Translations under genes and position numbers: made by a program
DNA from: Eledone cirrhosa
Taxonomy: Eukaryota
DNA length: 64,000 bases
Assembly: GCA_964016885.1 (NCBI GenBank)
Contig: OZ024745.1
Span: 65,844,001 to 65,908,000, forward strand
Reading direction: 5' to 3'
In this document: piece by piece, positions 1-49,325 of the stretch
How positions within the stretch are numbered: position 1 is the first letter of the stretch
How the letters are laid out: every line of letters begins with the position of its first letter
Notes under the pieces: model-generated
What the model was told of the DNA's origin: nothing
The model's database searches: none
The model's input: only the letters and a program-made list of their open reading frames with translations

Positions 1-973
1 TTAGCCAGAATGAAGTATACTAATTATAATACTACAGTTTGTCCATATCGATTTAAAATAATAAATCAACAAAGACGAACTGCATTGCCAAATGGCCATG
101 ATGTTTAGACACATTTAAATTTCAAAATCAAACCTGTTCCGTAGATAAGTTTAAACTTTAAAATCCAAATGTGTTTCGAGATGAATAAGTGTAAGGAATA
201 TTATGTCCTGCTCTCTTCAGTAAACATCCAGGGACAAATTGATATGCTTCACTTCTAAATAATTTAAAAGACTGTGTAACGCACATGGTTCCCAGTTTCT
301 AGCAAGCCTCATACCCGTACTGCTAGAAATAACAGTCGTATATATGAGGCTACGTTCAGCTCAACCTAGGAGCAATTATATTATTAAGTGTAATGAATTC
401 TTTTACAATGGAATTAACTCGAAGAAAGAAATATTTCTGAGCCGTGTAATTCATTACACTTAATAATATAATTGCTCCTAGGTTGAGCTGAACGTAGCCT
501 CATATATACGACTGTTATTTCTAGCAGTACGGGTATGAGGCTAGCTAGAAACTGGGAACCATGTGCGTTACAAAGTCTTTTAAATTATTTAGAAGTGAAG
601 CATATCAATTTGTCCCTGGATGTTTACTGAAAAGAGCAGGACATGATATTCCTTACACTTATTCATCTCGAAACACATTTGGATTTTAAAGTTTAAACTT
701 ATCTACGGAACAGGTTTGATTTTGAAATTTAAATGTGTCTAAACATCATGGCCATTTGGCAATGCAGTTCGTCTTTGTTGATTTATTATTTTAAATCGAT
801 ATGGACAAACTGTAGTATTATAATTAGTATACTTCATTCTGGCTAAATTTTCTTTTACAATATAAATACAGATGTGTTGGTATTTGTGTTTCATCATATA
901 TATTAGTTTATACACGGCTCAGAAATATTTCTTTCTTCGAGCTAATTCCATTGTAAAAGAATTCATTACACTT
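1..973. mobile_element. Fold-back element with ~400-bp inverted arms and permuted terminal duplication (PLE pseudo-LTR-like), ending at (TA)n
   Basis: 1-399 is the near-perfect reverse complement of 448-846. The spacer 400-447 reappears reverse-complemented at 912-959. AATTCATTACACTT is directly repeated at 448 and 960. It may extend left of the window. Diverged homolog at ~10222-10720. Confidence 0.75.
160..228 (-). ncRNA. Hammerhead ribozyme-like motif with 36-nt stem-loop II (mirror copy 620-690 on +, core mutated to CTGAAAA)
   Basis: Minus strand reads CTGAAGA-gag...ctc-GAAA-cacat-TT. Stem II is closed by GAG/CTC; stem I is weak. Confidence 0.4.
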
Positions 974-1084
974 ATATATATATATATATATATATATATA
1001 TATAGTTTTGCGAGGATTTTGATATGAAATCATGTGTCGAAACAAATATTGTTATACTTAAAAAAAAAATAAAAAAAAATATAT

Positions 1085-1542
1085 ATAAATAAATACATAC
1101 ACAAGCACAATAACAACAAACACATATAAACACACACTAGTAAACTATAGAATACAATAACCAATACACAGTCACCCAAACACTATACACGCACGCAAAC
1201 GCATGCGCAGAGAACAAGACAAAAATAAATAAATAAATAAATAAATAAATAAATAAACAGACTAAATAAAGATGGCGTAGTCATACAATACAACAGGAGG
1301 AAATATAATAGCACCACTGATGATATTGCAGATGTGCAACGAAAGAACTTTGTTAGCCTATATATATGTGTTTGTGTCTATATTATATCTGTATTTTTGA
1401 CCGTTGGTCAGTCAATGGTAACATTGAGGACCGAATAAATTAAATTAACCGATATAAAAGACACAGAAGCGAAAACCAACCAAACAGCGAGTGTGTTCTG
1501 TTATTAATTCTGGCAATATTATTATACAAATATGACCCTCCC
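1085..1542 (+). mobile_element. 3' end/UTR of a Penelope-like element
   Basis: The terminus GAAAACCAAC...GTGTGTT...ATGACCCTCCC before (AT)n matches the 3' terminus of the RT/GIY-YIG element at 11727-11790 (minus). Contains an HHR core at 1317-1344. Confidence 0.6.
1310..1358 (+). ncRNA. Minimal hammerhead ribozyme motif (degenerate)
   Basis: CTGATGA (1317-1323), stem II TTGCA-gatg-TGCAA, GAAA (1341-1344). Stems I and III are imperfect. Confidence 0.5.
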
Positions 1543-1573
1543 CATATATATATATATATATATATATATATAT

Positions 1574-1788
1574 AATGAAAGAAATGTGGTAAGGAACCAG
1601 ATGTACCATAACGCACCAAAGTACTCAATACTTAGGGCAGTAGAGTGGGTAATAGGAACGAGTAGGACCCCGACGGCTGAGCTCAAGCCGTTTCGACGGC
1701 TAATTCTGGACTAAATTAGTCCAGAATTAGTCCAGAATTAGCCCTCGAAACGGCTTGAGCTCAGCCGTCGGGGTCCTACTCGTTCCTA
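1574..1788. mobile_element. ~215-bp fold-back element family B, copy 1, in (TA)n
   Basis: ATAGGAACGAGTAGGACCCCGACGGCTGAGCTCAAGCCGTTTCG (from ~1652) is inverted at ~1745-1788. (TA)n on both sides. Confidence 0.75.
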
Positions 1789-1831
1789 TATATATGTATA
1801 TATATATATATATATATATATATATATATAT

Positions 1832-2046
1832 AACGAAGGAAATGTGGTAAGGAACCAGGTGGACCATAACGCACCAAAGTACTCAATACTTGAGGTAGTA
1901 GAGTGGGTTATAGGAACCAGTAAGACCCCGACAGCTGAGCTCAAGCCGTTTCGAGGGCTAATTCTGGACTAATTCTGGACTAATTTAGTCCAGAATTAGC
2001 CGTCGAAACGGCTTGAGCTCAGCTGTCGGGGTCTTACTGGTTCCTA
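1832..2046. mobile_element. Fold-back element family B, copy 2 (tandem with copy 1)
   Basis: Highly similar to 1574-1788, same hairpin, separated by (TA)n. Confidence 0.75.
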
Positions 2047-2100
2047 TATATATATATATATATATATATATATATATATATATATATATATATATATATA

Positions 2101-46137: not shown

Positions 46138-46478
46138 TTGTAATTTTTGTTGTTTTTCTTATAAATATATACATAGACACAGAAAGAGCTAGAAATAGAG
46201 ATACGTATGTAGGTAGGTAGATATATAGACATGTAAATAGAGAGGTAGACAAATAGACACTTTTGCTGTTATTGTTTTTATTCACCTGCTGTGCTGCCCA
46301 TTAAAATTCTACAGGCTAGTTGTTTTTATTGGTGAATAAAACAATAACAGCAAAAGTGTCTATTTTCCGACCTCTCTATTTACTTGTCTATATATCTACC
46401 TACCTACATATGTATGTCTATTTCTAGCTCTTTCTGTGTCTATCTATATATTTATAAGGAAAACAACAAAAATTACAA
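46138..46478. repeat. Inverted repeat, ~150-bp arms (46138-46287 / 46331-46478), ending at (TA)n
   Basis: TTGTAATTTTTGTTG...TTTTATTCACC is inverted against GGTGAATAAAA...CAACAAAAATTACAA. Confidence 0.8.
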
Positions 46479-47559
46479 TATATATATATATATATATATA
46501 TATATGAATACACATGTGCGCATCCACACACACACATGCATATATATATATGTGTGTGTGTGTGTGTGTGTGTGTGTGTGTGTGTGTGTGTGTGTGTTTG
46601 TGTGTGTGCGTGTGTGTGTGTATTTAAAACAATTCACGTGTGATACGCGAAACTGTATATAAATACATATATATTGAAAAAAAAATACATTCAGGCTACC
46701 CAACCAAAACTATGAATCCACTAGGCCGTAAAAAATCAAATGTCCTTCGAAAATCTCAAGATTCATAAAAACGAACGGGAAAAAACAAGACTTTCTTTAA
46801 ACAACGTATGCAAACGCAGTCAACAACTAGAACGTAGTAGGTCATTTTGGAAAGCAGGGAAAATGCTGAAAGACAAAGGGGAAAACAAGTCTTTGATACT
46901 AAAATATATATTAACCGAAAAACAACTTGACACAAAGTAAAAATATTATACATAAGCAAATGATTGAATGAGGAAAACCTTAAAAACACTCCAACAAAAT
47001 GAAAGAAAACGTAACAATATAATATTGAAAAGCAAAGAATAGAATAATTACAGAAAGACAAATACATAATCTAATCAATATAAAAACCAACATCTGTGAT
47101 AAATTAATGGAACCAAGATTCATAAAGGTAATAAAATGGTCGCACCGATGGTTATAAGAGTTCTCGCCTGGTGATTGATGTGGCGTAAAACTCTTATCAT
47201 GTGAAAGTAATTCAATTTAAATAAACAATATAACCTGTACCTTGTAGTGAGTAACCTTTTCTTCATTTGTTAACAAACAATATTATATATATATACGTAT
47301 ATACTTTGACGCACACACATATAGGTCTGTACTTCTCCCTATATATATATACAAGCGAATATATATATATATATATAAGCGAATATATATATATATATAT
47401 ATGCCTACATACGTGTGTGTGTGTATATATATAAGTGTGTCTGTATGTTGATCAATAATTTTGTTAGTTACTCCAATATGTGCAGAAGATGCTGAAACAG
47501 ACTATTTGTATTGAGAATGGGATAACTAAATTTCATTTCAAAATGTTTTTATTGGACAT

Positions 47560-47652
47560 TGAACGTTACATATGTTTCACAAATAATCGGCTCCAGGACC
47601 TAATCAATATTATTGACCTGACCCCATCATCAATATACTCGTCAGACGTGTT
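47560..47652 (-). ncRNA. Hammerhead ribozyme motif with 60-nt stem-loop II (GUA triplet)
   Basis: Minus strand: ACGT-CTGACGA-(60 nt)-GAAA-CATATG-TA-ACGT, then AATAAA about 13 nt after the predicted cut. Confidence 0.7.
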
Positions 47653-47809
47653 TAGTCAATGAAATAATTTTCCTCCTTGCGATATATATATAGAGAGAGA
47701 GAGATTACATGAATACACCAATTTCGCAGGTGAAAGATTAACATTTATTACGTAACTGACATATATTTTGTCGATAAGTAGGTCAGCATATTTAGAATCG
47801 CTAATTTGA

Positions 47810-48138
47810 TGCCTTAGTGGTTAGAGAATTGGGCTTGTAATCAAAAGGTTGAGAGTCCGATTCTCGGACAGAGTGATACGTTGTGTCCTTGAGCAAGACA
47901 CTTTATTTCACATTGTTCCAGTCTAATAAACTGTAGAAATGAATTACGACGTCACTGGTGCCAAGCTGTATCGGGCATAGCCTTTCCCTTGGACATCATC
48001 GGGGGCATGGAGAGGGGAGGCTGGTATGCATGGGTGACTGCTGGACTTCCTCAGACAACCTTGCCCTGGTTTGTGCCTCGGAGTGAAACTTTCTAGGTAT
48101 AAATCACATGGTCATTCGTGACCGAAGGGGGGGTCTTC
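47810..48138 (+). mobile_element. tRNA-derived SINE with conserved-domain (CORE/Nin-like) body; partial copy at 25340-25420
   Basis: GCCTTAGTGGTTAG A-box, GAGTCCGATTCTC B-box-like, GTGTCCTTGAGCAAGACACTT, then CTGGTGCCAAGCTG...GCATGGG.GACTGCTGG. Confidence 0.6.
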
Positions 48139-48139
48139 G

Positions 48140-49325
48140 ATGCACACACATATACACACATACACACACACACACACACACACACACATATATATATGTA
48201 TATCTATGTATATATATATATATATATATATATATATATATATATATATATATATATATCTATATATATATATATATATATATATATATATATCTCCCTC
48301 TATATATATATATATATCTATATATATATATATCTCCCTCTCTCTCTCTCTCTCTCTCTCTCTATATATATATATATATATATATATATATAGAGAGAGA
48401 GAGAGAGAGGGAGAGAGGGAGAGAGAGGGAGAGAGAGGGAGAGATAAACATAAATACTTTGTAACTTTGTAACAGCGAGATATGAATTCCGATGTTAAAA
48501 TCGTACTCATACCCATTCAGGGTTCCTAATTAAACCCTTTACTTTCCTGTGAGCCTCTGAGGAGCCCAACTTGGGCGTAACATGTGTAAGAGCTTCTTAT
48601 AAATATATTTTAACGGTTTGCTTCTTTCTTCAATTTCTTCGATTATATATATATATATATATATATATATATATATATGCATATGTATATATTCATATAT
48701 ACATATATACACACACACACACACACACACACACACACACACACACACACACACACACACACACACACACACACACACACACACATATATATATATATAT
48801 ATATATGTATATATATATATATATGTATATATATATATATATATATATATATATTTATATATATATATATATATATATATATATATATATATATATATAT
48901 ATATATATATATATATATATATATATATATATTAGGGTAAATATTGATGCAATTCAATTCAAGCACTCAACGTACATTTTACACATAGGAGTGACGGAGT
49001 AAATATCGAATAAGGAAACTACTTCGCTTTTCCTTATTATATATATATATATATATATATATATATATATATATATATATATATATATATATATATATAT
49101 ATATATATATTTATATATACATATATATATGCATATATATACATATATATATACACATATATATATATACATATATATATGCATATATATATACATACAC
49201 ACACACATATATTTATATATATATATACATACATACATATATATATATATATGTGTGTGTGTGTGCGTGTGTGTGTGTGTGTGTGTGTGTGTGTACATAC
49301 AGATATAGATATAGATAGATAGAGA
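48140..49325. repeat. Compound microsatellite field (TA/CA/TC/GA) with short unique inserts
   Basis: Direct reading. Confidence 0.9.
48551..48595 (+). ncRNA. Minimal hammerhead ribozyme motif (GAAA mutated to GTAA)
   Basis: GAGCCT-CTGAGGA-GCCCA-act-TGGGC-GTAA-CATGTG-TA-AGAGCTT. Confidence 0.6.

Follow-up and report, generated by a model that had tools for sequence, protein, structure and literature searches.

What are the many short inserts that lie in (TA)n microsatellite runs in a 64,000-nucleotide stretch of the Eledone cirrhosa genome (assembly GCA_964016885.1, contig OZ024745.1, positions 65,844,001 to 65,908,000; here called the window, 64 kb of a 3.0-Gb genome)? The original prediction named 15 of them, the listed intervals referred to below, and read them as a population resembling short interspersed elements (SINEs) or retrozymes and mobilised by Penelope-like elements (PLEs). 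Its observation is partly confirmed and its interpretation partly supported. In the reading that we favour, and which we hold to be slightly on the probable side of even, two families of truncated Hydra-clade PLE 3' ends are mixed with two families of hammerhead retrozymes in the (TA)n runs, and the hairpins that many of the inserts form would come from both cut target strands each priming a cDNA on the same RNA. These are known classes of element, and their copy numbers here are very high.

The most abundant family, A, has three members in the window, all short palindromes. The copy at 1574-1790 (minus strand) consists of the 3' half of a hammerhead ribozyme (HHR) and a Hydra-clade PLE tail of about 76-80 nt, with no catalytic core; the copy at 15490-15683 (plus strand), from an older subfamily, likewise has the HHR 3' half only and no core. 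The long arm of the second copy, at 1833-2046 (minus strand), matches the 3' end of an intact 3,543-bp unit at locus L176, elsewhere in the genome. In a genome sample of 80 evenly spaced 10-kb stretches, 800 kb in total, family A occurs at 34-36 loci, which extrapolates to about 130,000 copies. The outer ends in (TA)n are identical in 30 of 30 genome copies, and the apex is variable; because the apex differs between copies, the hairpin is not inherited as a structure of the element. Longer copies, found by pattern search, have a full hammerhead with the apex site inside loop II, and long copies include reverse transcriptase (RT) and GIY-YIG sequence; subfamily variants are common to long and short copies. 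Locus L176 holds a tandem of the intact unit, whose 3' end matches family A and whose 786-codon open frame, read from its translation, has YRDD, a GIY-YIG-like motif, DKT, RWR and a CxCX5C linker and no CCHH. A Pfam search of this open reading frame (ORF) gave no match. Repeats of 11 nt were also seen at the apexes of short family A copies.

A second family, F45, tells the same story. The palindrome at 45138-45606 is the end of an intact 3,118-bp PLE unit with a 782-codon frame (locus L296), in whose translation we read YRDD, a GIY-YIG-like motif, DKT, RWK and a CxCX5C linker, again with no CCHH. At least 40 identical copies are present on one contig, and the family is very young. It has two fixed ends 104 nt apart, hence a tail of 104 nt, and its ribozyme retains the core, stem II, GAAA and palindrome and lacks stem I. 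Both parents show (TA)n insertion and a pseudo-long terminal repeat (pLTR), or tandem, structure, and the RT3-4 segments of the Hydra-type parents match the printed alignment of PMC8557442 by eye. Judging by these matches, A and F45 are the exact 3' ends of intact Hydra-clade PLEs located elsewhere in the genome rather than independent SINEs; together they cover three of the listed intervals. The original prediction had allowed that every family might prove to be the 3' end of an autonomous PLE, and for A and the 45138 insert this is so.

Two other families are of a different kind. Family B, represented by a two-armed insert at 6273-7018 and a fragment at 2101-2382 (plus strand), is a head-to-tail unit of 435-441 nt that has a complete motif and ends in a tail of about 34 nt; its inverted copies are variable. 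The larger insert has a complete HHR core at 6810 (plus), a decayed one at 6451 (minus) and its tail at the right; the fragment has no core, and the HHR cleavage site is about 7 nt upstream of the point where its arms join. Six of 30 family B loci run end-to-start, and none of 28 matches showed a coding link. Family F1, a non-coding head-to-tail repeat with a period of 511-514 nt, is present as the two-armed insert at 1-973, whose left arm extends beyond the window start and whose long-stem III hammerhead has a complete core at 220 (minus) and a core with one substitution at 627 (plus); under a strict end-to-start test none of 25 F1 loci qualified. B and F1 fit non-LTR retrozymes, and self-cleavage and circular RNA are predicted for them. 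The expectation of non-coding retrozymes is thus borne out by the 6273/2101 and 1-973 families (units of about 438 and 512 nt), and the broader SINE- or retrozyme-like description holds insofar as the population is PLE-linked, HHR-bearing and (TA)n-targeted but is wrong as a general label. An RNA polymerase III B-box is absent from B, F1 and A, which have only loose A-box matches; a control tRNA-type SINE has a B-box. At locus L118 we also noted a head-to-tail array of a unit of about 556 nt with nine complete HHR matches, a third retrozyme family.

How common are the ribozymes themselves? A type I descriptor (exact CUGANGA and GAAA, three stems) found five complete HHRs in the window, with cores at 220, 27683, 42559 and 47645 on the minus strand and 6810 on the plus strand, against a mean of 0.02 and a maximum of 1 in 100 block-wise dinucleotide shuffles; a stricter earlier descriptor, since superseded, had given one weak match. 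Motif frequency is therefore far above chance, but to say that most inserts carry a hammerhead overstates the case for copies in the window, as complete motifs lie in 5 of the 15 listed intervals. In the remaining intervals the motif is halved, decayed or absent (decayed or stem-less HHRs at 2401, 11272, 25718, 29020, 34950, 45138 and 48445). Complete motifs do occur in the relatives fetched for the 2401/25718, 11272 and 47450 inserts. In the genome sample there were 73 matches in 32 of 80 stretches (0-1 in eight shuffles), extrapolating to about 273,000 motifs in the genome (bootstrap 172,000-389,000); allowing a U3-A8 core gives 78 sample matches in 28 clusters. By conserved core and three helices, the five window intervals and the 73 sample matches are type I hammerheads, with catalysis predicted. 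Minimum-energy folding of eight window motifs gave only the 1-973 motif a fold clearly stabler than shuffles (z -4.1), and the majority, as monomers, fold otherwise than as a hammerhead. The best 150 of 220 Rfam matches include no hammerhead, being microsatellite look-alikes. Literature counts, obtained with other descriptors, are about 4,000 minimal motifs in the coelacanth and 9,000 in Xenopus (PMC4209133), about 5,000 in a mussel and up to 120,000 in the axolotl; the roughly 2-4 x 10^5 complete motifs extrapolated for this genome exceed all counts in the literature reviewed, the axolotl's up to 120,000 included.

The association with TA runs is likewise general. All 15 listed inserts touch a TA run at one end and 10 at both, as described originally, and the enrichment extends to the genome sample, where 58 of 73 HHR matches have a TA run within 300 nt downstream, as compared with 24% of random points. 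About ten hairpins had been reported, and we find inverted arms in 9 of the 15 intervals, ten hairpins in total. The suggestion that their density here is unusual did not survive comparison with the sample: the window has 5 HHRs against 5.8 per 64 kb and 9 TA-bounded inverted inserts against 6.3. High HHR density belongs to the whole genome and not to this window. TA runs number 1.4 per kb in the window and 1.9 per kb in the sample. TA tracts are nested insertion hot spots. Different families are stacked in the same TA run at loci L042, L044, L205 and L297.

Among the tails of these families a short motif recurs. Of the 32 distinct 3' tails that HHR families show in the loci examined, 9 contain GAGYRCT (shuffle mean 0.38, maximum 4), which lies 43-69 nt from the tail end in eight of the nine; being near-palindromic, it also occurs on the opposite strand, in six tails. 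Window sites are at about 1880-1890, 27722-27730 and 34990-35000, and the same motif stands at the end of the coral Hydra element printed just ahead of Hydra-1_Obim in the supplement of PMC8557442. It is a candidate protein-binding site.

The origin of the hairpins can be approached through the anatomy of their arms. In all 36 short palindromes scored exactly one arm is tailed. Of 31 long two-armed insertions, 29 could be scored (L193 and L128 could not): 28 have one tail, one has none and none has two. Either arm can be the one that reaches further. In the short palindromes the longer 5' reach belongs to the tail-less arm in 15, to the tailed arm in 13 and to neither in 8, and in the long insertions the longer arm is tail-less in 15 and tailed in 11, with two equal. 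Junctions of long insertions have overlaps of 1-8 nt or gaps of 0-32 nt, and most HHR families with good sampling show two recurrent end lengths. A copy of the first arm could not outreach it on the 5' side while falling short of it on the 3' side, so each arm is likely to be its own priming event on one source RNA. At one locus (L177:4170-7741) a 55-bp ORF piece is repeated about 65 times, right at the arm junction, resembling telomerase-style slippage.

We consider, tentatively and with confidence a little short of even, that PLEs integrate by obligate double priming, in which a dimer writes two cDNAs from two fixed starts on one RNA, one per strand of the cut (TA)n, and the two are joined head-to-head. 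In the favoured reading set out at the start, which is somewhat more probable, a GIY-YIG domain would cut within (TA)n, where the insertions are found. Two RT active sites would then start at the two fixed sites, 76-104 nt apart and downstream of the ribozyme; the fixed ends are observed, and a role as start sites is suggested by the in vitro work of Frangieh 2024 (PMC11167929). Each cDNA would proceed toward the RNA 5' end and stop independently, and the 3' ends would subsequently join through the 1-8 nt overlaps or filler seen at junctions. RT starting in the 5' repeat copy may reach the transcript start and run off it after some 65 and 140 nt, giving the roughly 200-bp family A palindromes with half a ribozyme. 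Retrozyme RNAs would use the PLE enzymes in trans. In vitro, a Poseidon protein cuts and extends both strands, uses two start sites that flank the tail, is predicted to form a dimer and can dispense with ribozyme cleavage (PMC11167929).

The run-off step depends on the family A boundary, which is sharp. Exact genome counts are 40,103 arms and 9,641 short palindromes; 18,971 arms extend six bases further 5', 4,552 extend five bases beyond that, and a core pattern lying some 45 nt further 5' has 4,274 matches, so that about 89% of arms end within some 12 nt. The boundary lies in the word TTAGTC, inside the ribozyme and about 230 nt before the first ATG, and we take this word to be a match to the initiator consensus. 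The Penelope pLTR has been described as bearing an initiator and downstream promoter element (Inr/DPE) promoter. The boundary is probably the transcript start; a hard RT stop is the alternative. Ribozyme cleavage as the source of this 5' end was rejected, since loop II, where the boundary falls, precedes the cleavage site, and a splice acceptor was dropped on finding that some arms include bases preceding the AG; a cap-G signature at the boundary was not shown.

The family A core has itself changed. The parent region folds in hammerhead topology with a U3-A8 core, no stabler than shuffles (z -0.05). We withdrew an earlier view of the TTGAGAA core as dead, U3-A8 being a known covariant (PMC4209133). 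Among the first 100 of the 4,274 core matches, counted by eye, U3-A8 was found in 75, C3·A8 in 24, U3·G8 in one and C3-G8 in none, and C3-G8 persists in older copies. As read from these sequences, the core switched from C3-G8 through C3·A8, a mismatched subfamily, to U3-A8. This series records a subfamily that spread with a mismatched core whose pair was later restored, which bears on whether PLEs need ribozyme cleavage.

The strongest competitor to double priming has the second arm made by self-priming: the first cDNA folds back and is copied, the copy is cut or stopped at the inner fixed site, and the palindrome centre is later trimmed unevenly. PLE head-to-head repeats have been interpreted in this way in print (PMC3846280), the tail being attributed to resolution by the endonuclease (PMC8557442), and such a route accommodates the perfect or near-perfect centres of L302, L197 and L170, the private variants common to both arms and the short junction overlaps. 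Simple fold-back of a cDNA is insufficient, because the second arm cannot exceed the first, and the added trimming would have to remove kilobases up to the centre in about half of the insertions, very young ones included, while the 915-bp perfect palindrome of L302 survives intact. In L189 each arm has a different internal deletion, unmirrored in the other. Furthermore, the inner site ends both L208, a copy in which no inverted arm was found, and the two arms of L183, and therefore acts as a start. We regard self-priming as rather unlikely, though the likeliest of the rivals.

Several observations nevertheless count against our own account, and they should be set beside it. The long insertions were chosen as close opposite-strand pairs on one contig rather than at random, and L183 has no tail on either arm. 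Fold-back combined with lopsided central deletion likewise yields either arm longer. Across 21 family A insertions (16.5 kb of overlap) 88 insertion-private variants are present in both arms, and these suit fold-back or later gene conversion equally well. F45 arms share only 5 private variants over 7.5 kb, against 38 discordant sites, and in family A other insertions contain both alleles at 70 of 242 discordant sites, about the number expected by chance on a rough estimate; two templates for the family A arms are possible. In vitro, the start site showed no link to strand (Frangieh 2024, PMC11167929). The base after the family A boundary (A 8, G 5, T 2, C 2) gives a weak cap signature. Finally, in the loci examined 4 of 43 HHR clusters are tied to coding sequence and about seven families had no parent found, so the non-autonomous share may exceed that presented here. 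No parent turned up among the loci examined for the families at 2401/25718, 11272, 27617, 27792, 34950, 42468, 47450 and 48445; 2 of 50 examined matches of the 11272 family lie downstream of PLE coding sequence, and the 48445-48643 insert has no relative in 1.69 Mb of genome DNA examined.

That the families are independent, non-autonomous SINE-like or retrozyme units whose hairpin is copied as such is improbable. It does hold for the linear, not the hairpin, form of B and F1, with their head-to-tail units and, for B, no coding link; family A, too, is strongly amplified with a fixed 5' boundary, as its exact short palindromes attest, and several families have no parent found. Against this, copies do not share an inherited apex, A and F45 correspond to intact coding PLEs, family A's subfamily variants run through long and short copies alike, and the B-box is missing from B, F1 and A. 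Least credible by far are DNA transposons of the miniature inverted-repeat transposable element (MITE) kind, with long terminal inverted repeats and insertion at TA, which would account for the TA flanks and inverted arms but not for asymmetric fixed ends, variable apex, length and 5' truncation, head-to-tail tandems or ribozyme motifs, and which the RT-coding parents already refute for A and F45.

The remaining inserts of the window are diverse, and less so than first described: rather than being wholly unrelated in sequence, they include the families 1574/1833/15490, 2101/6273 and 2401/2690/25718. The last of these, family D, has decayed cores at 2401-2497 (plus) and in a two-armed copy at 25718-25896 (plus), with another copy at 2690-2790 (minus); 25573-25706 is a separate small insert. 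At 11272-11400 (minus) is a decayed member of the sample's commonest complete-HHR family, which accounts for 16 of the 73 sample matches. A small HHR insert at 27617-27770 (core 27683, minus) has a stem II of just 2 bp and is followed by a longer one at 27792-29116 (plus) with a decayed HHR at its end (core 29020) and a palindromic stem III in relatives. The two-armed F35 insert at 34950-35345 has a canonical-looking core but was counted among the decayed or stem-less copies; its core in the window is likely to reflect CpG decay, because relatives read CCGAGGA in 16 of 19. The old single-arm copy at 47450-47680 (minus), with a complete HHR (core 47645), is related to F35 by eye. The two-armed insertion at 42468-45100 has arms of 927 bp, 93% alike, a complete HHR core at 42559 (minus) and, between the arms, a Hydra-type RT N-terminal fragment (43373-43992). 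The insert at 48445-48643 (plus) is decayed and HHR-like, with a core at 48557 and an altered GAAA, and 15873-16113 (minus) is the end of another repeat family with only the first half of an HHR core.

The original prediction attributed mobilisation to PLE RT/GIY-YIG enzymes with remnants in the window. The two larger remnants are a broken PLE between TA runs at 11724-14073 (minus), with RT fragments and GIY-YIG and by eye not Hydra-type, and a 5'-truncated PLE at 16202-17650 (plus), with an RT C-terminus, GIY-YIG and a decayed HHR near 17490-17520. Both are other PLE types tied to no listed insert, and the enzymes found with the inserts are Hydra-clade. Further TA-bounded inserts, beyond the original 15, lie at 10207-10730, 11140-11249, 27413-27601, 34576-34845 and 63228-63311. 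Two of them are relatives of known families, one of F1 (diverged) and one of family A (old); the rest are a half-core end and members of two other families, one of them palindromic. There are also tRNA-type SINE copies, presumably of the octopus kind, at 11417-11525, 17868-18040, 20330-20660 and 41740-41790, and what look by eye like decayed LINE-like RT and endonuclease remnants at about 30100-31150, 50585-51170 and 62284-62673, of which three pieces tested had no Pfam match.

How PLE inverted repeats and tails arise is still undefined according to PMC8557442. Young copies number in the tens of thousands in this genome, which also has two intact parent types. The rule of one tail with either arm longer makes the question of PLE mechanism testable by counting and in vitro. 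If obligate double priming is true, tail, inverted pLTR and solo-pLTR palindromes would be explained by one rule, and some 10^5 tiny palindromes in the genome would be the legacy of priming beside the transcript 5' end. For annotation, abundant 200-bp TA-flanked hairpins that resemble SINEs or MITEs are PLE ends. If transcribed, hairpins this numerous could be a large source of double-stranded RNA.

The double priming proposed here has a partial parallel in L1 twin priming, in which two primers come from the cut target and an inverted junction with a short overlap results. Twin priming inverts non-overlapping parts of one RNA, whereas here the 3' region is duplicated. Another parallel is the PAc Poseidon protein in vitro (Frangieh 2024, PMC11167929), with two RT starts bounding the tail and an HHR upstream of them, although that element belongs to a different clade and the available part of the paper does not address the joining of two cDNAs into an inverted repeat. 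Inverted 5'-truncated PLE copies (Penelope of D. virilis, A. vaga, Naiad; PMC2377424, PMC3846280, PMC8557442) share the head-to-head copy, one-end tail, junction palindromes and pLTR promoter; in those the tail is optional, whereas here one tailed arm is a near-fixed rule, either arm may be longer and most family A copies stop at one site. A literature search, which did not cover subscription journals or repeat databases, found no report on octopus hammerhead numbers or PLE twin priming, and the main text of a recent Octopus vulgaris repeat annotation (PMC13282606) does not use the word "ribozyme".

Much of what we describe has published precedent. Truncated copies in inverted arrangement with a tail on one side are in print, as is the preference for (TA)n; so are Octopus elements of the Hydra clade that carry hammerheads, pairs of hammerheads lying 100-700 bp apart on opposite strands, and retrozymes derived from PLEs. 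B, F1 and the L118 array resemble metazoan non-LTR retrozymes (PMC7229834; bioRxiv 10.64898/2026.07.22.740005) in being non-coding head-to-tail units of 400-560 nt with one type I HHR each. They differ in that copies here mostly lie scattered in (TA)n as single or two-armed insertions that bear PLE-type tails. With the Hydra-clade PLEs (PMC8557442), including Hydra-1_Obim of Octopus bimaculoides, the parents share a C-terminal GIY-YIG, DKT, RWK/RWR, the CxCX5C linker, (TA)n insertion and the absence of CCHH. Near the end, where the published elements have an HHR, A has a region of hammerhead topology with a U3-A8 core and F45 a motif that lacks stem I. Units here are 3.1-3.5 kb as against generally less than 3 kb in the published elements, tails are 76-104 nt as against 30-40 nt in canonical PLEs, and tandem pLTRs are clear where Hydra-1_Obim was noted as having "no pLTR" (PMC8557442). 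Unlike in published Hydra-clade PLEs, terminal fragments here are very numerous.

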